The notes under the pieces were generated by a model. It was not told the DNA's origin. It saw only the letters and a list, made by a program, of their open reading frames with translations, and made no database searches. This document shows positions 26,865-61,388 of a DNA stretch of 64,000 nucleotides, piece by piece. The translations under genes and the position numbers were made by a program. The DNA comes from Escherichia coli O127:H6 str. E2348/69 (GTDB lineage Bacteria; Pseudomonadota; Gammaproteobacteria; Enterobacterales; Enterobacteriaceae), in the NCBI RefSeq assembly GCF_000026545.1, contig NC_011601.1. The stretch is one strand, 5' to 3'. The stretch's first letter is position 1, and each line of letters starts with the position of its first letter.

Positions 26865-27857
26865 ATGCGACATAGCGTACTTTTTGCGACAGCGTTTGCC
26901 ACGCTTATCTCTACACAAACTTTTGCTGCCGACCTGCCGGGCAAAGGCATTACTGTTAATCCGGTTCAGAGCACCATCACCGAAGAAACTTTCCAGACAC
27001 TGCTGGTCAGCCGCGCGCTGGAGAAATTAGGTTATACCGTCAATAAACCCAGCGAAGTGGATTACAACGTTGGCTACACCTCACTTGCTTCCGGCGATGC
27101 AACCTTCACCGCAGTGAACTGGACGCCACTGCATGACAACATGTACGAAGCTGCCGGTGGCGATAAGAAATTTTATCGTGAAGGAGTATTTGTTAACGGC
27201 GCGGCACAGGGTTACCTGATCGATAAGAAAACTGCCGACCAGTATAAAATTACCAACATCGCGCAACTTAAAGATCCGAAGATCGCCAAACTGTTCGATA
27301 CCAACGGCGACGGTAAAGCGGATTTAACCGGCTGTAACCCAGGCTGGGGCTGCGAAGGTGCGATCAACCACCAGCTTGCCGCGTATGGACTGACCAATAC
27401 CGTGACGCATAATCAGGGGAACTACGCAGCGATGATGGCTGACACCATCAGTCGTTACAAAGAGGGTAAGCCGGTGTTTTACTACACCTGGACGCCGTAC
27501 TGGGTGAGTAACGAACTGAAACCGGGGAAAGATGTGGTCTGGTTGCAGGTGCCGTTCTCCGCACTGCCGGGCGATAAAAATGCCGATACCAAACTGCCGA
27601 ATGGCGCGAATTACGGCTTCCCGGTCAGTACCATGCATATCGTTGCCAACAAAGCCTGGGCCGAGAAAAACCCGGCAGCAGCGAAACTGTTTGCCATTAT
27701 GCAGTTACCAGTGGCAGATATTAACGCCCAGAACGCCATTATGCATGACGGCAAAGCCTCAGAAGGCGATATTCAGAGCCACGTTGATGGCTGGATCAAA
27801 GCCCACCAGCAGCAGTTCGATGGCTGGGTGAATGAGGCGCTGGCAGCGCAGAAGTAA
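26865..27857 (+). CDS. proX: Glycine betaine/proline periplasmic binding protein
   Basis: Start [21 protein letters not shown] (signal peptide); the ORF-track start at 26823 is an upstream extension. Confidence 0.94.
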
Positions 27858-28305
27858 ATATTGATAACCGCGCAGATAATGCTCATGTGAGTAAAACAAT
27901 TGCAGCGATGGTTTTAATCCGGCTGAAAATCGATGAGACGTTTTCTGAAGGCCGGGGCGACGCGCAGGGATGCGCGGCGAGGGCGCGTCTTACAGGGATG
28001 TTACCTCGCGCCCGTACCCGATAGCCGTAAGAAATAAGTCGAATGTACCGCGTAGCGGCGATTTTGTGCCAAAAGCCTGGGTCGCCAGGGTGGTGGCGAC
28101 TGAGCCACCCTGGCACGTTCACCAGCAAAATAGTGACAAGCTATAGTCTGGAAGTGAACGTAACATTTGCCTTAGTGGCATATTTCACCTTCAAATACCC
28201 TCTCCCCATTACCCGCACATTTCAACAATCTATCTTTCATCCCATATTCATCAACATCCGCTATTATTGATTTCCAGCTTAATCATCACCTGATGAACAA
28301 AAATA

Positions 28306-29490
28306 ATGACTAAACCTAATCATGAGATTAGCCCGGCGCTGATCGTGCTGATGTCTATCGCCACCGGTCTGGCGGTAGCCAGTAACTATTACGCCCAGCC
28401 ATTGCTCGACACCATCGCGCGTAACTTTTCCCTTTCCGCCAGTTCGGCAGGCTTTATTGTTACCGCCGCGCAGTTGGGCTATGCCGCAGGTCTGCTGTTT
28501 CTTGTTCCCCTCGGTGATATGTTTGAACGCCGCCGCCTGATTGTCTCGATGACCTTACTGGCAGCAGGCGGCATGTTAATCACTGCCAGCAGTCAGTCGC
28601 TGGCGATGATGCTCCTCGGTACGGCATTAACCGGTTTATTCTCAGTCGTGGCACAAATTCTGGTTCCGCTGGCAGTGACGCTGGCTTCACCGGACAAACG
28701 CGGCAAAGTGGTCGGCACCATTATGAGCGGGCTGCTGTTGGGGATCTTGCTGGCACGGACCGTTGCCGGATTGCTGGCGAGTCTCGGTGGCTGGCGAACT
28801 GTCTTTTGGGTCGCTTCGGTATTAATGGCACTGATGGCGCTGGCGTTATGGCGTGGTCTGCCACAAATGAAATCAGAAACCCACCTCAACTACCCACAGT
28901 TGCTAGGTTCTGTTTTCAGCATGTTTATCAGCGATAAAATCCTGCGCACCCGCGCGTTGCTGGGCTGCCTGACCTTTGCCAACTTCAGCATTCTCTGGAC
29001 CTCAATGGCCTTTTTGCTTGCCGCTCCACCTTTTAACTACAGCGATGGTGTAATTGGTCTGTTTGGGCTTGCGGGAGCTGCCGGAGCGTTGGGCGCTCGT
29101 CCGGCGGGCGGTTTTGCCGATAAGGGCAAATCGCACCACACCACAACTTTCGGTCTGCTGCTGCTGTTACTTTCATGGCTGGCAATCTGGTTTGGTCACA
29201 CTTCCGTACTGGCGCTGATTATCGGCATCCTGGTGCTGGACCTCACCGTGCAGGGCGTGCATATCACTAACCAGACGGTAATTTATCGAATACACCCTGA
29301 TGCGCGTAATCGCCTGACCGCAGGTTACATGACCAGCTACTTTATTGGCGGTGCCGCTGGTTCGCTAATTTCAGCCTCAGCCTGGCAACATGGCAGTTGG
29401 GCTGGCGTGTGTCTGGCTGGCGCGACGATTGCCCTGGTTAACTTACTGGTCTGGTGGCGAGGTTTTCATCGTCAGGAAGCCGCAAATTAA
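28306..29490 (+). CDS. ygaY: MFS transporter (YgaY), intact 394-aa ORF
   Basis: Uninterrupted 12-TM-like MFS protein at the position where, as I recall, K-12 carries a disrupted ygaY. Confidence 0.8.
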   Translation: MTKPNHEISPALIVLMSIATGLAVASNYYAQPLLDTIARNFSLSASSAGFIVTAAQLGYAAGLLFLVPLGDMFERRRLIVSMTLLAAGGMLITASSQSLAMMLLGTALTGLFSVVAQILVPLAVTLASPDKRGKVVGTIMSGLLLGILLARTVAGLLASLGGWRTVFWVASVLMALMALALWRGLPQMKSETHLNYPQLLGSVFSMFISDKILRTRALLGCLTFANFSILWTSMAFLLAAPPFNYSDGVIGLFGLAGAAGALGARPAGGFADKGKSHHTTTFGLLLLLLSWLAIWFGHTSVLALIIGILVLDLTVQGVHITNQTVIYRIHPDARNRLTAGYMTSYFIGGAAGSLISASAWQHGSWAGVCLAGATIALVNLLVWWRGFHRQEAAN

Positions 29491-29613
29491 GCAATCAGCA
29501 ACCGTTTTCGTGGCTTTACACTTATAAGGGTGTTAAGAAGCCCATCAGTCTGATAAGGTTAAGATATTCATTCAGTCTATTTATAATATTAACAATCGTT
29601 AAGCGTACACTCT

Positions 29614-30351
29614 ATGGAAAGCCCTACTCCACAGCCTGCTCCTGGTTCGGCGACCTTCATGGAAGGATGCAAAGACAGTTTACCGATTGTTATTAGTTAT
29701 ATTCCGGTGGCCTTTGCGTTCGGTCTGAATGCGACCCGTCTGGGATTCTCTCCTCTCGAAAGCGTTTTTTTCTCCTGCATCATTTATGCAGGCGCGAGCC
29801 AGTTCGTCATTACCGCGATGCTGGCAGCCGGGAGTAGTTTGTGGGTTGCTGCACTGACCGTCATGGCAATGGATGTTCGCCATGTTTTGTATGGCCCGTC
29901 ACTGCGTAGCCGTATTATTCAGCGTCTGCAAAAATCGAAAACCGCCCTGTGGGCGTTTGGCCTGACGGATGAGGTTTTTGCCGCCGCAACCGCAAAACTG
30001 GTACGCAATAATCGCCGCTGGAGCGAAAACTGGATGATCGGCATTGCCTTCAGTTCATGGTCATCGTGGGTATTTGGTACGGTAATAGGGGCATTCTCCG
30101 GCAGCGGCTTGCTGCAAGGTTATCCCGCCGTTGAAGCAGCATTAGGTTTTATGCTTCCGGCACTCTTTATGAGTTTCCTGCTCGCCTCTTTCCAGCGCAA
30201 ACAATCTCTTTGCGTTACCGCAGCGTTAGTTGGTGCCCTTGCAGGCGTAACGCTATTTTCTATTCCCGTCGCCATTCTGGCAGGCATTGTCTGTGGCTGC
30301 CTCACTGCGTTAATCCAGGCATTCTGGCAAGGAGCGCCCGATGAGCTATGA
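29614..30351 (+). CDS. ygaZ: AzlC-family branched-chain amino acid (L-valine) exporter subunit
   Basis: 245-aa membrane protein, conserved ygaZ-ygaH pair. Confidence 0.9.
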
Positions 30352-34408: not shown

Positions 34409-35116
34409 ATGAATACCCAACGAAAATACGGGAGAACCTGGCATTACCCCTTCTCTCCAGGCACCACCAGCGATGACCGCATTAACACCGATTACTGGCA
34501 GGATTTAAAGGCCATCACGCAATTGGTGCACACAGAAAAACTCGATGGCGAAAATAACTGCCTTAACCGCTACGGCGTGTTTGCCCGCTCCCATGCCACG
34601 CCTACGCAGTCGGCATGGACCTATAAAATTCGCCAACGCTGGCAACTGCTGAAAAACGATCTCGGCGACCTGGAGTTGTTTGGTGAAAATCTCTACGCCG
34701 TTCATTCCATTGAATACCGCGCGCTGGAACAGGACTTTTACCTGTTTGCCGTTCGCTGCCAGGATATGTGGCTGAGCTGGGAAGAGGTGCAGTTTTACGC
34801 CGCTCTGTTTGATTTCCCCTGCGTTCCCGAAATCTCCGGCCCGCAGCCGGGGAATGATGAAAAAAGCTGGCAACGTGATTTTCTGGCGCTGGCCAATGCG
34901 CGCGGCACATTCGATCCCTGGGATACGCAAACCTGGCAACCCTGTACGCTGGAAGGCATTGTCAGCCGAAATCATGATGCGTTTTCTGTCGCTGACTTTT
35001 CGCATAACGTCTTCAAGTATGTGCGCAAAAATCATGTCAAAACCACTGTGCACTGGAAACGCCACTGGCAACGGGCGCGGATGGCCCATGAGTTCGTTTA
35101 TGGAGAACAGTCATGA
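34409..35116 (+). CDS. RNA-ligase-like nucleotidyltransferase (Rnl2/DraRnl-like), 235 aa
   Basis: Covalent nucleotidyltransferase motif I KxDG(x)N ([10 protein letters not shown]), candidate motif III (LELFGENLY), motif IV (LEGIVSR) and motif V lysines (FKYVRKNH) in the canonical order; 4-bp ATGA overlap with the next gene. Confidence 0.6.
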
Positions 35117-36225
35117 TTTGGCAACTTACCGACGATAAACGCTGGTCGGCGCTACGTCAGCGTTTTAGCTGGGTTGAGGAGATGCATCACACGCCACAAG
35201 ACCCTGAGCATCATGGTGAAGGCGACGTCGGCGTACATACCGAAATGGTGCTTAACGCCCTCATTACTCTGCCAGAATTCCAGCAACTCCCCGCTCAACA
35301 GCAGGAAGTTTTATGGGCGGCGGTGTTATTGCATGATGTTGAAAAGCGCAGCACTACCGTGCAGGAAAACGGACGTATTCAGTCTCCTGGTCATGCTCGT
35401 CGGGGCGAACTGACGGCCCGACAAATTTTATGGCGCGATATCCCAACGCCGTTCGTGCTGCGCGAGCAAATTGTTGCACTGGTGCGTCTGCATGGGTTAC
35501 CGCTATGGTTACTGGAACGCCCGGAACCGGAGCGTTTGTTGCTCACGGCTGCAATGCGCATCGACACGCGTCTGCTCGCTTTGCTTGCTCGTGCCGATCT
35601 GCTTGGTCGCCAAAGCCCGGATCAGCAATCAATGCTGGAACGCATCGATCTGTTCGAGCTGTTTTGCCATGAGCAACAATGCTGGGGAAAAATGCGCCCG
35701 TTCGTTTCTGATTCCGCACGCTGGCATTACCTGACCCATGAGCAAAGTTCTCCTGATTTTGTTCCCTGGGGGGCTGAACCTTTTGAGGTTATTTTGCTGT
35801 GTGGCTTACCGGGTATGGGCAAAGATCGCTATATCAGTGAACAGTGCCAGGGAATTGACGTTATCAGCCTTGATGATATGCGGCGGCGAATCAATGCCAG
35901 CCCGGATGACAAAACCGCTACCGGGCGTATTGTGCAACAGGCAAAAGAAGAGGCGCGCGTTTTTTTACGCCAGAAAAAGCCGTTCATCTGGAATGCAACG
36001 AACATTACCCGCCAGCTGCGTAGCCAGCTCATCAGTCTGTTTACGGCTTACGGCGCACGAGTAAAAATCGTTTATCTGGAAGTGCCATGGGCGCAATGGA
36101 AGCAGCAAAATGCCAGACGCGAGTATGCAGTTCCTGAAGCGGTCGTGATGCGGATGGCCTCAAGGCTGGAAGTTCCTCAACCTGATGAAGCACATAGCGT
36201 GGAGTATCGGGTGATTGAAAGGTAA
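35113..36225 (+). CDS. HD-domain phosphohydrolase fused to a P-loop (polynucleotide-kinase-like) domain, 370 aa
   Basis: N-terminal HD motifs ([14 protein letters not shown] ... AVLLHDVEK) resembling the HD domain of CCA-adding enzymes; C-terminal Walker A-like GLPGMGKD and Walker B-like VISLDD. Confidence 0.6.
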
Positions 36226-36247
36226 ATAAATATCCTCCGGCATAGCC

Positions 36248-37797
36248 CTGTCTCTTATACACAAATCCCCACCCGGGGATTTGTGATGTCTGTCAGTCTG
36301 CTTTAGGGGGACTCTTTCCATCCGGTAGTTTCCTTCCTCCCCGGCAGCGATTTTTTGAACTTTTTCCTCACCTGTTGATCTTCTCTTATATTTCATTTTC
36401 TTCGGGTCTGTTATGGTACTTTCTGATTGTTATTCATGGGCTAACGAGCAGTTTGGACATGCCCGTCTCGGTGATCCGCGTCGTACACGACGCCTTGTGT
36501 CACTGGCCTCTTCTCTCGCTCAGCATGCAGGTCTTTCTATTGTGAAATCATCCCAGTCCACTGCTCAGGTTGAAGGTGCGTACCGCCTGATACGTAACCC
36601 GTCTGTGTCCCCGCAAGCCATTGCCGAAGCCGGATTTACCGCCACTGTAAGGGCATGTGAGGCTCATCCGCTGCTCCTCGCGCTGGAAGACACCACCACC
36701 ATTAACTTCAGTCACAGTACGGCATCTGATGACCTGGGGAATACCACCACTAACCCGAAGACGCGCGGGCTGCTGGCTCACTCTGTCCTGATGTACGCCC
36801 CCGACAGCGCCCTGCCAGTCGGTCTTATCGAACAGCAGCGCTGGAGTCGTGCCACGGACACCTACGGTGTTAAGCACCAGCGAAAAGAACGTCCCTATGA
36901 AGAAAAAGAAAGTTACCGCTGGCAGCAGGCTTCGGAGCGCATGGCCGAACGGCTGGGGGAGATACAGAAACGGGTAATCACTGTCTGTGACCGGGAAGCG
37001 GATATCTGGCATTACCTGCATTATAAAGTCAGCCACGGGCAGCGCTTCGTGGTGCGTGCAGCACAGAATCGCCGGCTGGAAGAAGCACCCGGCAAGCTCT
37101 TCGAACTGCCGGAAGTCCTGGCAACCGCGGGAAGCCACACGCTGAATGTGATGCAAAAAGGCGGGCGGGCAGCCCGCCAGGCCCGGATGTTCATCAGTTA
37201 CAGCGAAGTCAGCATAAAAAATCCCGACAACAGCGGCCAGGCGCTCCCGCTCACGTATGTCTGTTGCCGGGAGCAGGCAGAGGACGGCGCCTGCTGGCAT
37301 CTGCTGACGTCAGAAAAAGTGGCGAGTGCCGCCGATGCGCGACGTATCGTCAGCCATTACGAGCGACGCTGGCTGATAGAGGAATACCACAAGGCGTGGA
37401 AAAGTGGTGGTACATGTGTGGAATCGCTGCGAATGCAGACCCGGGATAACCTCGAGCGCATGGTGGTTATCAAGGCGTTTATCGCGGTGCGGGTGCTGGG
37501 CCTGCGGCAGGGCGGTATCAGTGAAGAAACACAAAATGACAGCTGTGAGAAAATACTGACGCCGACAGAGTGGAAACTGCTGTGGGTTAAGCTGGAAGGA
37601 AAACCGCTTCCGTCACAGATGCCGACACTGAAATGGGCCTGTCTGAAACTGGCGAAACTGGGGCGATGGCATGACAGCAAACGCACCGGTCGCCCCGGTT
37701 GGGTAGTCATGTGGGATGGCTGGTTCAGACTTCAGGATATGGTTGAGGGTTACCTGGTGATGAAGTCTCTTGATCAGGAGATCTGATCAAGAGACAG
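36248..37797 (+). mobile_element. IS4-family, IS50(Tn5)-like insertion sequence, copy 1 (1550 bp)
   Basis: Termini CTGTCTCTTATACACAAATCC and, on the other end, CTGTCTCTTGATCAGATCT (IS50 outside/inside-end-like); flanked by the 10-bp direct repeat CGGCATAGCC; internal 457-aa transposase. Confidence 0.85.
36413..37786 (+). CDS. IS50-like DDE transposase (457 aa)
   Basis: Clear homology to Tn5 Tnp (..GDPRRT.RLV....EGAYRFIRNP.., ..YERRWLIEEYHKAWKSG.., ..RLGGFxDSKRTG-like C-terminus) but not identical to Tn5. Confidence 0.85.
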   Translation: MVLSDCYSWANEQFGHARLGDPRRTRRLVSLASSLAQHAGLSIVKSSQSTAQVEGAYRLIRNPSVSPQAIAEAGFTATVRACEAHPLLLALEDTTTINFSHSTASDDLGNTTTNPKTRGLLAHSVLMYAPDSALPVGLIEQQRWSRATDTYGVKHQRKERPYEEKESYRWQQASERMAERLGEIQKRVITVCDREADIWHYLHYKVSHGQRFVVRAAQNRRLEEAPGKLFELPEVLATAGSHTLNVMQKGGRAARQARMFISYSEVSIKNPDNSGQALPLTYVCCREQAEDGACWHLLTSEKVASAADARRIVSHYERRWLIEEYHKAWKSGGTCVESLRMQTRDNLERMVVIKAFIAVRVLGLRQGGISEETQNDSCEKILTPTEWKLLWVKLEGKPLPSQMPTLKWACLKLAKLGRWHDSKRTGRPGWVVMWDGWFRLQDMVEGYLVMKSLDQEI

Positions 37798-37815
37798 CGG
37801 CATAGCCGGAGGTTT

Positions 37816-38496
37816 TTCAAATGCGCCTATAAGGCTCTCTTACCAGCCGCGCCCTAACAGGCGCACACGATCTGACATTTGCATCCAACTTCGTTACTTA
37901 CGGCCCGTAAACGGGCTGCCCGGATAGGGAATCGATAACTGCTCTCCCATTTTATCCTCTTCAAGCTGGTGCTTTATGTAATCCTGTATCTTCGCCGTGT
38001 TCTTACCCACCGTATCGACGTAATACCCTCTGCACCAGAACTCCCTGTTCCTGTACTTGAATTTCAAATCACCAAACTGCTCGTAAAGCATCAGACTGCT
38101 TTTCCCTTTCAGATATCCCATAAAGCCGGATACGCTCATTTTGGGCGGGATCTCCACAAGCATATGGATATGATCTGCACAGCATTCAGCTTCCAGAATC
38201 CGTACACTTTTCCACTCACACAGCTTTCTCAAAATACAGCCTATTGCTCTACGCTTCTCTCTGTAGAACACCTGTCTTCGGTATTTTGGCGCAAATACTA
38301 TGTGATATTTACAGTTCCATCGGGTGTGCGCTAAGCTCTTTTCGTTCCCCATTGGGACCCCCTTTTGATTTCTTGTTTGACACTTGCAGTTGCCAGACCG
38401 CAAGGTGTTTTAACAAATCAAAAGGGGTTTTAATAACTGGCTCAAAGCTGAAAGCTTTCCGGAACCCCCAGCCTAGCTGGGGGTTTTCTGTGCACA
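37816..38496 (-). mobile_element. IS200-like element (IS200/IS605 family); boundaries approximate
   Basis: Contains the IS200-type tnpA gene plus a terminal hairpin cccccagcctagctggggg (38466..38484); about 680 bp. Confidence 0.6.
37894..38403 (-). CDS. tnpA: IS200-family HUH (Y1) transposase TnpA
   Basis: 169-aa protein with the HuH motif (ADHIHMLVEIPPKMSVS) and the catalytic Tyr region (RGYYVDTVGKN) typical of IS200 TnpA. Confidence 0.85.
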   Translation of the reverse strand: MRSGNCKCQTRNQKGVPMGNEKSLAHTRWNCKYHIVFAPKYRRQVFYREKRRAIGCILRKLCEWKSVRILEAECCADHIHMLVEIPPKMSVSGFMGYLKGKSSLMLYEQFGDLKFKYRNREFWCRGYYVDTVGKNTAKIQDYIKHQLEEDKMGEQLSIPYPGSPFTGRK

Positions 38497-48416: not shown

Positions 48417-49502
48417 TTACTGCACGCGCGCCAGCGCCACGGCTTGTCCTAACTGCCAGACCGCCATTGCGTAATGGGTGCTGTGGTTATAACGGGTAAT
48501 GGTGTAGAAGTTCGGCAGACCGTACCAGTACTGGTAACCGGTACCGACATCCAGACGCAGCAGGCTGGCTTGTTGATGGTTGCCCAGCGGCTGCTGTGGC
48601 GTTAAACCTGCCGCGGCAAGCTGCGAAATGCTGTACCTGGTTTTGAAGCCATTTGGCAAGCCTGGCGCCTGACCGTTTGCCATTACCGCGACCTGATCGC
48701 CTTTCACCCAGCCGTGCGCTTTGAAATAATTCGCCACGCTACCGATCGCATCAACCGGATCCCACAGGTTGATATGCCCGTCGCCGCTGAAATCTACCGC
48801 ATATTGTTTGTAAGACGACGGCATAAACTGTCCGTAGCCCATCGCCCCGGCAAAGGAACCTTTCAGATTGAGCGGATCGTCCTGCTCGTCGCGCGCCATC
48901 AGCAGGAAGGTTTCCAGCTCGCCAGAAAAATACTCCGCGCGGCGTGGGTAGTTAAATGACAGCGTTGCCAGCGCATCGAGGATGCGAGTTTTCCCCATCA
49001 CGCGCCCCCAGCGGGTTTCAACGCCGATAATCCCGACGATAATTTCCGGCGGTACACCATACACCTGCCACGCGCGATTCAACGCATCTTCATACTGATT
49101 CCAGAAAACCACACCGTTCTGCACGTTGTCCGGCGTAATAAATTTTTTGCGATAACGCAGCCATGCGCCGTTCGGACCTGATGGCGGTTTCACCGATGTG
49201 GTTGGTGCCTGGTTATCCATCAGCCGCAGTACCGAATCCAGACGTTTCGCCTGGGAGAGAATTTCCTGCAACTGCTGACGATCGAAACCGTGTTTGTTCA
49301 CCATTTTGTCGATGAACTGCTGGGCATTCGGGTTATTGGCGAAGTCACCGCCCATCTGCATCACATTGTGCTGCGGCTCAAGCAGGAAGCCGCCAGACGG
49401 CGTTCCGGTGGTCGTTTCAGTCTCAGTAGGTTTTGGCTTGCTGCTACAGGCGGCAAGCAACACAAAAAGGGGAAGCAATGTTACATAACGACGCTTGAAC
49501 AT
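48417..49502 (-). CDS. mltB: Membrane-bound lytic murein transglycosylase B
   Basis: Start MFKRRYVTLLPLFVLLAACSS (lipoprotein signal); the ORF-track start at 49562 is an upstream extension. Confidence 0.95.
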   Translation of the reverse strand: MFKRRYVTLLPLFVLLAACSSKPKPTETETTTGTPSGGFLLEPQHNVMQMGGDFANNPNAQQFIDKMVNKHGFDRQQLQEILSQAKRLDSVLRLMDNQAPTTSVKPPSGPNGAWLRYRKKFITPDNVQNGVVFWNQYEDALNRAWQVYGVPPEIIVGIIGVETRWGRVMGKTRILDALATLSFNYPRRAEYFSGELETFLLMARDEQDDPLNLKGSFAGAMGYGQFMPSSYKQYAVDFSGDGHINLWDPVDAIGSVANYFKAHGWVKGDQVAVMANGQAPGLPNGFKTRYSISQLAAAGLTPQQPLGNHQQASLLRLDVGTGYQYWYGLPNFYTITRYNHSTHYAMAVWQLGQAVALARVQ

Positions 49503-49755
49503 GAGGGGTCCATTTAACAGATTCAACCAGGGGCAAGTATGGTAAAGCATCCCCTGCCGCACAAGGAAGCGGTTGTCTGTTTTCAGTGCTCTGTTTCTCT
49601 CTAGTATCTTCTTTCAGTTCATATTTTTTCTTAAAGAATGTTGTAACTAAATTTACATCAGTTGTTTCACCAGCCATGGCATTGGATAATGAGCGTTCAA
49701 TCTGGCTACCAATCCCTGGCTGGAATAAATAAATGGACCTTAACCGGAGAGAGCA

Positions 49756-50721
49756 ATGAGTGAAGCACTACTGAACGCGGGACGTCAGACGTTAATGCTG
49801 GAGTTGCAGGAAGCAAGCCATTTACCGGAACGTCTGGGCGATGATTTCGTTCGCGCCGCCAATATCATCCTGCACTGCGAAGGCAAAGTGGTGGTTTCGG
49901 GAATTGGCAAATCGGGCCACATTGGTAAGAAAATCGCCGCAACGCTTGCCAGCACCGGCACACCGGCTTTTTTTGTCCATCCGGCAGAAGCACTGCACGG
50001 CGATCTGGGGATGATTGAAAGCCGCGATGTGATGCTGTTTATCTCTTATTCCGGTGGCGCGAAGGAACTGGATCTCATTATTCCGCGTCTGGAAGACAAA
50101 TCTATCGCTCTGCTGGCAATGACCGGAAAACCGACGTCACCGCTGGGCCTGGCGGCGAAAGCGGTGCTGGATATCTCCGTAGAACGCGAAGCCTGCCCGA
50201 TGCACCTTGCGCCGACCTCCAGCACCGTGAATACCCTGATGATGGGCGACGCGTTGGCGATGGCAGTCATGCAGGCGCGCGGATTTAACGAAGAAGATTT
50301 TGCCCGCTCCCACCCTGCTGGAGCACTGGGCGCTCGCTTGCTGAATAAAGTGCATCATCTGATGCGCCGTGATGACGCTATCCCGCAGGTAGCGTTAACC
50401 GCCAGCGTGATGGATGCGATGCTGGAACTCAGCCGCACCGGTCTGGGGCTGGTGGCGGTATGTGACGCTCAGCAACAGGTACAAGGCGTCTTTACCGACG
50501 GTGATTTACGTCGCTGGCTGGTTGGCGGCGGCGCACTCACCACGCCAGTCAATGAAGCGATGACGGTCGGCGGCACCACGTTGCAATCGCAAAGCCGTGC
50601 CATCGACGCCAAAGAAATCCTGATGAAACGCAAAATCACCGCCGCACCGGTAGTGGATGAAAACGGCAAACTCACCGGCGCAATTAACCTGCAGGATTTC
50701 TATCAGGCCGGGATTATTTAA
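49756..50721 (+). CDS. gutQ: D-arabinose 5-phosphate isomerase GutQ (SIS + CBS domains)
   Basis: 321-aa translation matches recalled GutQ. Confidence 0.93.
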
Positions 50722-55163: not shown

Positions 55164-55694
55164 GTGCAGTTTATGAAACATTCATTTGAAGTAAAACTTG
55201 CCGCTGTAAATCATTACCTGGCTGGTCATGCAGGCATCATTTCTACGGCAAAACTCTTTCAACTTTCTCACACCAGCCTCTCACACTGGATTAATCTTTT
55301 TCTTCTTCACGGTCCTCGGGCACTGGATTGCAGACACAAGCGTAGCTATTCTCCTGAAGATAAACTTTGCGTGGTTCTTTATGCTCTCGGACATTCTGAG
55401 TCTCTACCCCGGGTAGCTGCCCGGTTTAACATTCCCAGCCACAACACGGTTAAAAACTGGATAAAAGGCTACCGCAAATCTGGTAATGAGGCCTTTATCA
55501 GGCGCAGGAAGGAGAAAAGCATGACCCGTTCTGATGATACCCATGAAAACGAGGCAAACATGACGCCGGAAGAGATGAAGAATGAGCTGCGTTATCTTCG
55601 CGCAGAAAATGCATATCTGAAAGCCATGCAGGAGCATCTTCTGGAAAAAAAGCGCCAGGAGCTGGAGAAAAAACGAAAGTCATCCGGAGCCTGA
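55164..55694 (+). CDS. IS3-family (IS150-like) OrfA
   Basis: 176-aa HTH/leucine-zipper protein; ends at an A_AAA_AAG slippery motif (55651..55659). Confidence 0.8.
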   Translation: MQFMKHSFEVKLAAVNHYLAGHAGIISTAKLFQLSHTSLSHWINLFLLHGPRALDCRHKRSYSPEDKLCVVLYALGHSESLPRVAARFNIPSHNTVKNWIKGYRKSGNEAFIRRRKEKSMTRSDDTHENEANMTPEEMKNELRYLRAENAYLKAMQEHLLEKKRQELEKKRKSSGA

Positions 55695-56126
55695 GGTACG
55701 GACACTGCCAGTCTGACCTGTTAAAGGCCGCAGGGCTGGCCAGAAGCACGCTGTACTACCAGCTGTCACTGCAGAAGGCTAAGGACAAGTATGCTGATGT
55801 GAAACAGCTCATAGCCTCCATCTTCCATGAACACCGGGGATGTTATGGGTACCGGCGGATCCATTGTGAGCTTCAGAAAAGAGGTCTTAAGTTCAGTGGC
55901 AAAACGGTGCGAAAACTGATGCAACAGCTCGGCCTGAAGTCTCCTGTGCGCCTGAAGAAATACCGGTCTTACCGGGGAAATATGGGACTCGCTGCAGAAA
56001 ATATCCTTCAGCGGCAGTTCAAAGCGGAAGCTCCCTGTGAGAAATGGGTGACAGATATCACCGAATTCAGGGCTGGCGGACAAAAACTGTACCTGTCCCC
56101 GATACTTGATTTGTTTAACGGGGAAA
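55650..56126 (+). pseudogene. Element A orfB, N-terminal fragment (through ..WVTDITEF..LYLSPILDLFNGE)
   Basis: IS3 DDE transposase N-terminal region truncated at the insertion of element B. Confidence 0.65.
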
Positions 56127-59096
<2,970 letters not shown>

Positions 59097-59135: not shown

Positions 59136-61388
59136 TTATCCGTTCTGGACTTCCCCTGCCAACCAACGCGCCGCAACAATAACCCCCTGCCCCAGAGACA
59201 ACCCGCCGTCACCCGCCGGTAAACTCTGTGGAAAGAGCAATGTGAAATCAGCGAGATAATGCGCCAGACGTGCACGCAGCAAACGGTTATGAATAACCCC
59301 GCCGCTAAATACCAGCGTAGTGATACCACGCATCGTGGCCTGCTCACGCATCAACGCAGCAAAACCCTGCGCCAGCGCATCATGAAACGCCCACGCGCGT
59401 TGATTAACCGGAGCCTGCCAGTTCAGCCACTGCTGCCAGAAAGTGGCGAGATCCAGTTGATTATCCACCAGCGGCATCGTCACCGGATGCGTCACTCCCT
59501 GGCTCGAAGCCGCCAGCGCCTCGAGAGCACAAGCCGCTTCACCTTCATAACTTAACGTGGCTGGCGCACAGCCCAGCGCCGCCGCTACGGCATCGAACAA
59601 ACGTCCACACGATGATGCCATCGGCGCGTTAATTCCACGCTCAATAGCCCGCGCCAGCACGCTCCAGTTTTGCTGTTGCACTCTTGCCGTTTCAGAGTAA
59701 TTCTGCCACTCCGGCACAAAGCGCAGGCACTGCGCCAGCAGGTTTCGCCACGGCTGCTTCGCAGCCAAATCGCCCCCCGGAAGCGCCACCGCAGGCAAGC
59801 CGCCCAGGTGCTGGCATTCACGATAGTTCACCCGCAAGCACTCGCCGCCCCACAAAGCGCCGTTCTCCCCCATACCAATACCGTCGAGCGTCAACGCAAT
59901 GACATCTCCGCCATCCAGAGGCCAGAGGTGTTCTGCCAGACACGCCGCTGCGTGGGCATGATGATGCAGTACCGTTTGCGTCGGCAGATTCATTTCGCGC
60001 GCCCACTGGCTGGAGACATAGCCCGGATGCGCGTCATGCACAACGTATTGCGGAGTGAAATCGTAGATGTTTTGCATCAGGCGTAACGCTTCGCGCCACT
60101 GCATCTGGATGCCATCGTCACTTAAATCGCCCAGATGCTGACTCAACACCGCTTGTTCGCCGCGCACCAGGCAGAAGGTATTTTTCAGATCCGCGCCGAG
60201 ACACAGCACAGGCGGAACATTTTTAAAGCCCGGAGGCAAAGCCAGCGCATCCGGCACATACCCCCGCGAACGGCGCAGCATTTCGCCGCTTTCGCGCACC
60301 ACCGAATCATCCATCCGCTGCACGATGTCGCGGTTATGTATCAAGAATCCGTCGGCAATGCCCTGCAAATCCGCCAGCGCCTGTTCGTTGCTGATAGCCG
60401 GTGGTTTACCGCTCAGGTTGCCGGAGGTCATCACCAGCGGGCATTGCAGTTCCTGTAACAGCAAATGCTGGAGCGGGTTCGCAGGCAACATTACCCCGAC
60501 TTCGTTAAGGCCAGGGGCGATATCATCACAAAGCTCAGGAACGTATTTTTTATCCACCAGCACAATCGGCGCGGCGGGCGTGGTAAGCAACTGACGGGCA
60601 GCGTCTGGTAAACCTTCTGCCGTTGGCAACATGACCGCCAGCGGTTTCGCCGGGCGATGTTTGCGCGCCCGAAGTGTCGCCACCGCGTTACTGTTACGTG
60701 CATCGCAGGCAAGATGAAATCCGCCAATCCCTTTGATGGCGACAATGTTGCCCATTTTTAACTGTGCGATAGCTGCCTGTAATGCCGCCTCTTGTTCTGC
60801 ATGTTCACCATGACTTACCCATTCAAGATGGGGGCCACACTCCGGGCAGGCCACCGGCTGGGCGTGGAAGCGACGATCGAGCGGGTCACAGTACTCTTTG
60901 TCACAAGCCGGACACAGCGGAAACGCCGCCATCACGGTAAACGGGCGGTCGTAAGGCATGGCGCGAATAATGGTGAAACGCGGGCCACAGTGGGTACAGT
61001 TGATAAACGGATAACGCCAGCGTCGTTCGCCTGGGGTATTCATTTCGGCAAGGCAAGCAGGGCAAGTCGCGGCATCGGGAACAATTTGCGTATTCATGAC
61101 GCCACCCGCGCTCTGGCGGATGGTGAACTCAGTGGGCAGTTGTGACCAGATAAACGGCTCACGCTCGACGCTATCAATACGCGCCAGTGGCGGGCAGTGC
61201 TGATGCAATTGAACAAGAAACGTTTCCGGATCTTCCAGCAGCCGGACTTCTACGCCATCGCCGTCATTACAGACATCGCCGTGAAGATTTAATTACTGTG
61301 CCAGTTGCCAGACAAACGGACGAAAACCGACGCCCTGCACTTTGCCACGAATACGCAGTTGGACACCGCAAGATGTGTTTTTTGCCAT
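59136..61388 (-). pseudogene. hypF: Carbamoyltransferase HypF with premature stop at codon 32 (CAA to TAA)
   Basis: Minus strand reads [35 protein letters not shown](61293..61295)[16 protein letters not shown].. then continues in frame as full-length HypF; the ORF-track 690-aa ORF starts at an internal Met. Confidence 0.85.

Follow-up and report, generated by a model that had tools for sequence, protein, structure and literature searches.

A stretch of 64,000 nucleotides of Escherichia coli O127:H6 strain E2348/69 (contig NC_011601.1; 'the window' in what follows) carries, between proX and ygaZ, an uninterrupted gene for an MFS transporter at a locus that is a pseudogene in E. coli K-12. The gene (positions 28306-29490) is very probably an ordinary and functional ygaY orthologue of the YnfM family, of which the intact state is ancestral and to which the deletion found in K-12 is the exception. 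A preliminary description of the window had reported an intact MFS reading frame of 394 residues at exactly these coordinates, between these two neighbors, and had described ygaY as disrupted in K-12; the analysis described here bears out both statements. Its accompanying remark, that this genome retains a function that K-12 has lost, stands insofar as the E2348/69 gene is intact, but has the emphasis the wrong way round, because the outlier is K-12.

The ygaY locus and the lesion in K-12

The listing of open reading frames for the window contains a single frame at the locus, which opens with ATG and runs uninterrupted for 394 codons. The features of the region, all on the plus strand, are as follows.

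26865..27857, plus strand: proX, the upstream neighbor and last gene of proVWX (reading frame; RefSeq annotation of the identical record)
27858..28213, plus strand: 356 bp of the proX-ygaY spacer that vary between strains, standing where a REP pair (BIME) of about 99 bp is found in K-12 and Citrobacter (alignment)
27921..28127, plus strand: dispersed structured element resembling TwoAYGGAY (Rfam match, 23-nt core, consensus fold)
28214..28305, plus strand: 92 bp directly upstream of ygaY, identical between E2348/69 and K-12 and common to nearly all E. coli
28306..29490, plus strand: ygaY, MFS transporter gene, stop codon included (reading frame, Pfam, RefSeq CDS)
28560..28566, plus strand: heptamer GGCAGCA, missing from K-12 (pairwise alignment with NC_000913.3 b2681)
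29614..30351, plus strand: ygaZ, the downstream neighbor, L-valine exporter subunit (reading frame; RefSeq)

A second E2348/69 record (NZ_CP059840.2) is 100% identical to the window over the 1601-bp region used as a megablast query (28100-29700). The 1185-bp CDS is present in that record too, under the RefSeq name 'MFS transporter' (WP_000165669.1), with proX before it and ygaZ after it, followed downstream of ygaZ by ygaH, emrR/mprA and emrAB. The 123-bp gap between ygaY and ygaZ contains a promoter-like match (29559-29587, score 10/12). With the same query, the ygaY locus was detected in 5,418 of 5,426 complete E. coli genomes.

The corresponding K-12 locus (b2681, formerly b2680/b2681; UniProt P76628; TCDB 2.A.1.36.3) is orthologous and has the same neighbors, proX and ygaZ; the gene order is shared by E2348/69, K-12 and Citrobacter, and identity to b2681 is high. 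In the MG1655 reference (NC_000913.3), ygaY is annotated as a pseudogene of 1178 bp, and on another MG1655 assembly PGAP gives it as 'MFS transporter, frameshifted', so that the gene is not intact in current K-12 annotation. The comparison with b2681 that the preliminary description had proposed as a check, carried out as a direct pairwise alignment across 1185 bp, displays 40 substitutions and one indel, a deletion of 7 bp in K-12. Outside the deletion, differences fall at 40 of the 1178 aligned coding positions; with the reading frame restored, these comprise 35 synonymous and 5 non-synonymous differences (the latter corresponding to 5 amino acid replacements), for a dN/dS of 0.047.

The bases absent from K-12 belong to codons 85-87, within the predicted third transmembrane segment (TM3, residues 78-94). 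The deleted heptamer has GGC on either side, the exact position of the deletion being ambiguous within 3 bp, and an origin by slippage or through microhomology is plausible. In the K-12 frame a stop follows after 88 codons, inside predicted TM3, while a second frame remains open for 318 further codons, which explains the old split annotation of the locus as b2680/b2681. K-12 ygaY thus encodes an 88-residue fragment only, whereas the E2348/69 gene is full length. On the reading favored here, the K-12 lineage alone lost 7 bp between GGC microhomologies in the TM3 coding region, a loss that shifts the frame and truncates the protein at 88 residues.

To follow the spread of this lesion, a 34-mer with the K-12 junction at its center was used, which can seed a megablast hit on the deleted allele only. 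The junction is present in 353 of the 5,426 complete genomes, and all 60 of the listed carriers (picked at regular intervals down the ranking of the 353) are laboratory derivatives of K-12. They include MG1655, BW25113, BW2952, C600, JM109, TG1, MC4100 and RV308, as well as J53 transconjugants, S17-1, EPI300, NEB Turbo and a mouse-gut-evolved MG1655 of serotype O16:H48. When a K-12 60-mer was used as the query, many genomes from outside K-12 matched at 89.6% (60/67), with identical flanks and the 7 extra bases present. An unflagged ygaY CDS of 1185 bp was found in each of five sampled lineages (O157:H7 Sakai, where the gene is named ygaY and its product 'transporter'; BL21(DE3); O111:NM; S10; and NS-NP030). 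Intactness across the 5,426 genomes was judged from the junction count, from coverage statistics, from the sizes of protein clusters and from this five-genome sample. Among the strains sampled, the lesion is confined to the K-12 lineage and of recent origin.

A separate event was observed in PCP06021, an E. coli from Galápagos seawater, in which a deletion has taken out ygaZ entirely, along with the greater part of ygaY and the beginning of ygaH; rare, independent losses of ygaY thus exist outside K-12.

Orthologues of 394 residues were recovered by protein searches in E. coli and Shigella (98-99% identity, with some clusters holding thousands of sequences), in E. fergusonii and E. marmotae (96-97%), in E. 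albertii (94%) and in Citrobacter (92%), where the contig order (nrdF-proVWX-ygaY-ygaZH-marR(mprA)-emrAB) is that of E2348/69. The low dN/dS and this conservation of orthologues together indicate that an intact ygaY is the ancestral and nearly universal state and that purifying selection acts on the gene.

YgaY as a member of the YnfM family

The protein matches the Pfam MFS_1 profile (PF07690) at 140.3 bits and E = 9e-41, where 33.4 bits would suffice, and the match falls into two stretches that cover both halves; weaker Pfam matches are to Sugar_tr and MFS_4. A crude hydropathy scan returns 11 hydrophobic segments where 12 are expected, the expected TM11 (at about residues 335-355) being weakly hydrophobic.

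Assignment to a more narrowly defined family proceeded from several comparisons. No NCBIfam equivalog model reaches its cut-off for YgaY. The best full-length NCBIfam alignments are to the PRK03545 sugar efflux, Cmx/CmrA, Bcr/CflA and EmrD models, all of them far below threshold (for example, 65 bits against a cut-off of 401); these models describe exporters with 12 transmembrane segments, and PRK03545, Cmx/CmrA and Bcr/CflA align over most of the length of YgaY. In a sequence search of the PDB, the nearest end-to-end match is a sugar-efflux MFS transporter (6kki, E = 7e-5; the other matches are remote as well). This SotB-type transporter (6kki/6kkj/6kkl) aligns weakly but colinearly, YgaY residues 12-383 corresponding to 6kki residues 41-406. 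Scores so far below the SotB, Bcr/CflA, Cmx/CmrA and EmrD cut-offs place YgaY outside these named families.

By comparison, a BLASTP alignment of YgaY with K-12 YnfM is colinear from end to end, with 26% identity over 409 columns (E = 1e-19). YnfM (b1596), which gives its name to TCDB family 2.A.1.36, has the same pattern of MFS_1 and Sugar_tr profile matches and is somewhat longer (417 residues, as compared with 394); it is a distant paralogue that lies at a separate locus, adjoining ynfL. In a paper that cites TCDB (PMC5417439), E. coli YgaY (P76628) is given as 2.A.1.36.3, a member of the 'acriflavin-sensitivity (YnfM)' family of unknown function. The full-length similarity to YnfM and the TCDB entry agree in placing YgaY in this family. 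An established physiological substrate exists for neither YnfM nor YgaY, and the literature searched held no experimental data on the function, substrate or phenotype of YgaY orthologues.

Two sequence motifs were looked for. The MFS motif A (consensus G-x-x-x-D-R/K-x-G-R-R/K) lies in the loop between TM2 and TM3. At the equivalent place in YgaY, between hydrophobic segments 51-67 and 78-94, residues 68-78 read PLGDMFERRRL, a divergent motif A in which the D and the RR are kept. Motif C (G-x-x-x-G-P-x-x-G-G), found in TM5, is characteristic of the DHA1 drug:H+ antiporters; it is not evident in TM5 of YgaY, where residues 142-158 (GLLLGILLARTVAGLLA) contain no G-P. Since motif C is not recognizable there, assignment of YgaY as an exporter is weak.

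From its family, we infer that YgaY would be a secondary transporter of roughly 12 helices, with an alternating-access mechanism powered by the proton gradient. Export is thought likelier than import, given the closest relatives of the protein and the conserved placement of its gene among export genes; the conserved block that contains ygaY also includes ygaZH (a valine exporter) and mprA-emrAB (multidrug efflux).

Expression and the proX-ygaY spacer

In the K-12 literature ygaY is regarded as a cryptic pseudogene, and its locus has been used as a neutral control (Keio ΔygaY) or as an integration site. An H-NS-mediated bridge is reported to connect the K-12 ygaY locus with the downstream regulatory element of proVWX, with ygaY transcript levels in that strain low and largely independent of osmolarity; expression of the E2348/69 gene may therefore be low or conditional as well. 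Carried further, these observations would allow for a gene that is open but cryptic, whether through silencing, for instance by H-NS, or through poor translation, its intactness then having no physiological consequence. The absence of an obvious Shine-Dalgarno sequence before the ATG, in a sequence read by eye, and the weakness of the promoter-like match upstream (28118-28147, score 9/12) point in the same direction. Such a reading is nonetheless unlikely, because a dN/dS of 0.047 and 92% amino acid identity to Citrobacter over the full length speak for purifying selection, which implies that the protein is made and used under at least some conditions.

An ordinary, functional ygaY might still be regulated differently in E2348/69, and here the spacer that separates it from proX has to be considered. 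It measures 448 bp in E2348/69 and is shorter in K-12 (191 bp) and Citrobacter (190 bp), and the part shared is the last 92 bp, which presumably constitutes ygaY's own promoter and 5' UTR region. In most genomes the megablast matches start at query position 114/115 or 356/357, and the full E2348/69-type spacer is found in 543 of the 5,426 complete genomes. The K-12 spacer contains a REP pair, whereas that of E2348/69 contains a structured repeat, housed in a 356-bp segment that is unrelated to the REP pair of K-12 and Citrobacter.

The fold of this element comprises an outer stem around two C-ANGGAU-G hairpins (27958-27979 and 27981-28013), set 2 nt apart, together with a 3' hairpin (at about 28082-28115). 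Both loops read AGGGAU in the window; in other copies the second loop never departs from AGGGAU, and the first can be AUGGAU, AGGGAU or AAGGAU. Loops of this kind resemble the SELEX consensus for CsrA. The arrangement, with adjacent A-N-G-G-A-U hexaloop hairpins inside an outer stem, also resembles that of the TwoAYGGAY RNA (RF01731, clan CL00106), reported from gamma-proteobacteria and the human gut. The enterobacterial element is, however, longer, has the extra 3' hairpin, occurs as a dispersed, multi-copy repeat and, in the window, has AGGGAU rather than AYGGAY loops. The window element reaches 28.2 bits against the Rfam model, whose gathering score is 43, and related copies, at 28.6-36.9 bits, likewise stay below this threshold, although several align to the full model (positions 1-168).

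The window holds one copy of the element only. A second E. coli copy, about 83% identical, lies in the yegH-asmA spacer, and the exact 23-nt core occurs at 28 Enterobacteriaceae loci in species-representative genomes, among them five in Kluyvera cryocrescens, five in K. intermedia and four in Escherichia whittamii, with further carriers in E. albertii, Trabulsiella and Pseudocitrobacter. Copy number thus reaches 5 per Kluyvera genome and varies between E. coli strains. One of the E. whittamii copies has a 75-nt insertion that contributes a third hairpin of the C-ANGGAU-G type.

A consensus fold of 21 distinct copies contains 63 base pairs, 19 of which display compensatory double changes, and 98.3% of the alignment cells pair on the consensus structure. 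The number of double-change pairs was 9.2 ± 1.2 in shuffled controls (0 of 500 reached 19) and 3-5 in slid controls, a comparison to be read with the caveat that the structure was predicted on the very alignment being tested. G·U pairs are frequent (at one pair, 19 of the 21 sequences have UG) and favor the strand that runs from proX to ygaY (plus) as the one on which the element is read.

Two alternative accounts of the element were considered and rejected. One, that it forms the leader of a particular gene, was prompted by a consensus 'AAAAGGAG' downstream in a first alignment, yet the downstream reading frames differ from locus to locus. The other, that it is a remnant of IS621 and its bridge RNA, was suggested by the yegH-locus copy, which adjoins an IS621 transposase; this link is countered by a REP sequence that lies between IS621 and the element, by copies of the element at other places that are without IS621, and by the rest of the window, which has no similarity to the element, even near its own IS110-family element.

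The yegH-asmA spacer, which lies outside the window, is a hotspot of structural variation in E. coli. Some variants carry a relE/parE-HTH toxin-antitoxin pair that is intact; in others there is a truncated pair accompanied by the element, a copy of IS621 inserted in a REP sequence or, in the K-12 type, just the 3' half of the element. When filled and empty sites were compared, the locus proved to be a patchwork (an intact relE/higA-like pair; a truncated pair; the half-element of K-12) that allowed no target-site duplication to be defined.

With these properties in hand, a case can be made that ygaY of E2348/69 is regulated differently from its counterparts, the element acting as a 5' leader of ygaY or as a 3' UTR of proX that could bind CsrA. 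The REP pair has been replaced, the structure that replaces it is supported by covariation, its G·U pairs favor the ygaY-sense strand, its loops are like both the CsrA consensus and TwoAYGGAY, and a search for an intrinsic terminator between proX and ygaY found none. Elsewhere, however, the element stands beside unrelated genes with no common gene downstream, so that it is not a dedicated leader of ygaY; its end lies some 180 bp short of the ATG, ahead of the conserved 92-bp region; and its Rfam scores are below threshold. Altered regulation of this kind is therefore judged very unlikely, even more so than a cryptic gene.

A role for the element family in its own right is a separate matter. 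TwoAYGGAY RNAs have been proposed to be CsrA-sequestering RNAs (PMC4333381), and the elements described here could conceivably represent an enterobacterial branch of that family that binds CsrA, either as a small sponge RNA or as a portable cis-regulatory module for its neighbors (here ygaY or the 3' end of proX); this is a speculative proposal, to which we give little weight. The element is a possible CsrA-binding RNA, a lead and not a finding.

Other differences within the window and the standing of ygaY

The preliminary description had set against the retention of ygaY the loss of hypF and of the srl genes. Both losses hold for the window, but in the case of hypF a newer E2348/69 assembly is annotated with an intact gene. 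The features concerned, together with a gene pair from an insert described below, are as follows.

34409-35116: RNA-ligase-family protein (Pfam RNA_ligase), overlapping the next gene
35113-36225: AAA_33/KTI12-like kinase-type ATPase, followed by ISEc13 and IS200C
48417-49562, minus strand: mltB
49756-50721, plus strand: gutQ, the sorbitol operon being missing at about 49563-49755
59136-61388, minus strand: hypF, with an in-frame TAG at codon 32 (61293-61295) in its translation

The newer assembly (NZ_CP059840.2) has CAG at hypF codon 32 and an annotated, intact HypF of 750 residues. Between positions 27756 and 64000 the window and that record differ by one base in 36,245 bp, at position 61295 (hypF codon 32), so that the window must derive from a different E2348/69 assembly. 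The stop is real in the window, and may represent either a sequencing error or a variant of the stock. Between mltB and gutQ, K-12 has the sorbitol operon (srlAEBD-gutM-srlR); E2348/69 lacks it, mltB being directly followed by gutQ in both the strain's annotation and the reading frames of the window.

That same single base is the one point that might lend color to the idea that the ygaY difference is itself an artefact of annotation or assembly, an idea that is effectively refuted by repetition of the K-12 deletion in 353 independent assemblies, by the presence of the intact allele in thousands of genomes and by a window ygaY that equals the newer E2348/69 assembly base for base.

Several further features of the window were recorded. 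Relative to K-12, an insert of about 4 kb lies between emrB and luxS (34409-38352), and includes the overlapping RNA-ligase and AAA_33 genes. PADLOC returned no match for this pair, which could be an RNA-repair-like or an uncharacterized defense pair. Between norW and hypF (about 55170-59060) lies a patch rich in insertion sequences, in which ISEc21 of the IS110 family is intact and IS3-family/IS1397 and other transposases are present as fragments or remnants, and a further copy of ISEc13 is located near the end of the window (62602-63975).

The difference between strains at ygaY is real but ordinary, and was already known in that K-12 ygaY is a pseudogene in the reference annotation; the annotation of other E. 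coli routinely includes an intact orthologue, and the finding is in itself of very little import. Two by-products of the analysis are useful, namely the recognition that the hypF stop is an assembly- or stock-dependent single base, and the structured repeat in the spacer upstream of ygaY, which may merit a study of its own. For the biology of the species, the lesson is that K-12 cannot stand for E. coli in general at ygaY, and that the function of YgaY would be better studied in a wild-type background or with a repaired K-12 allele.
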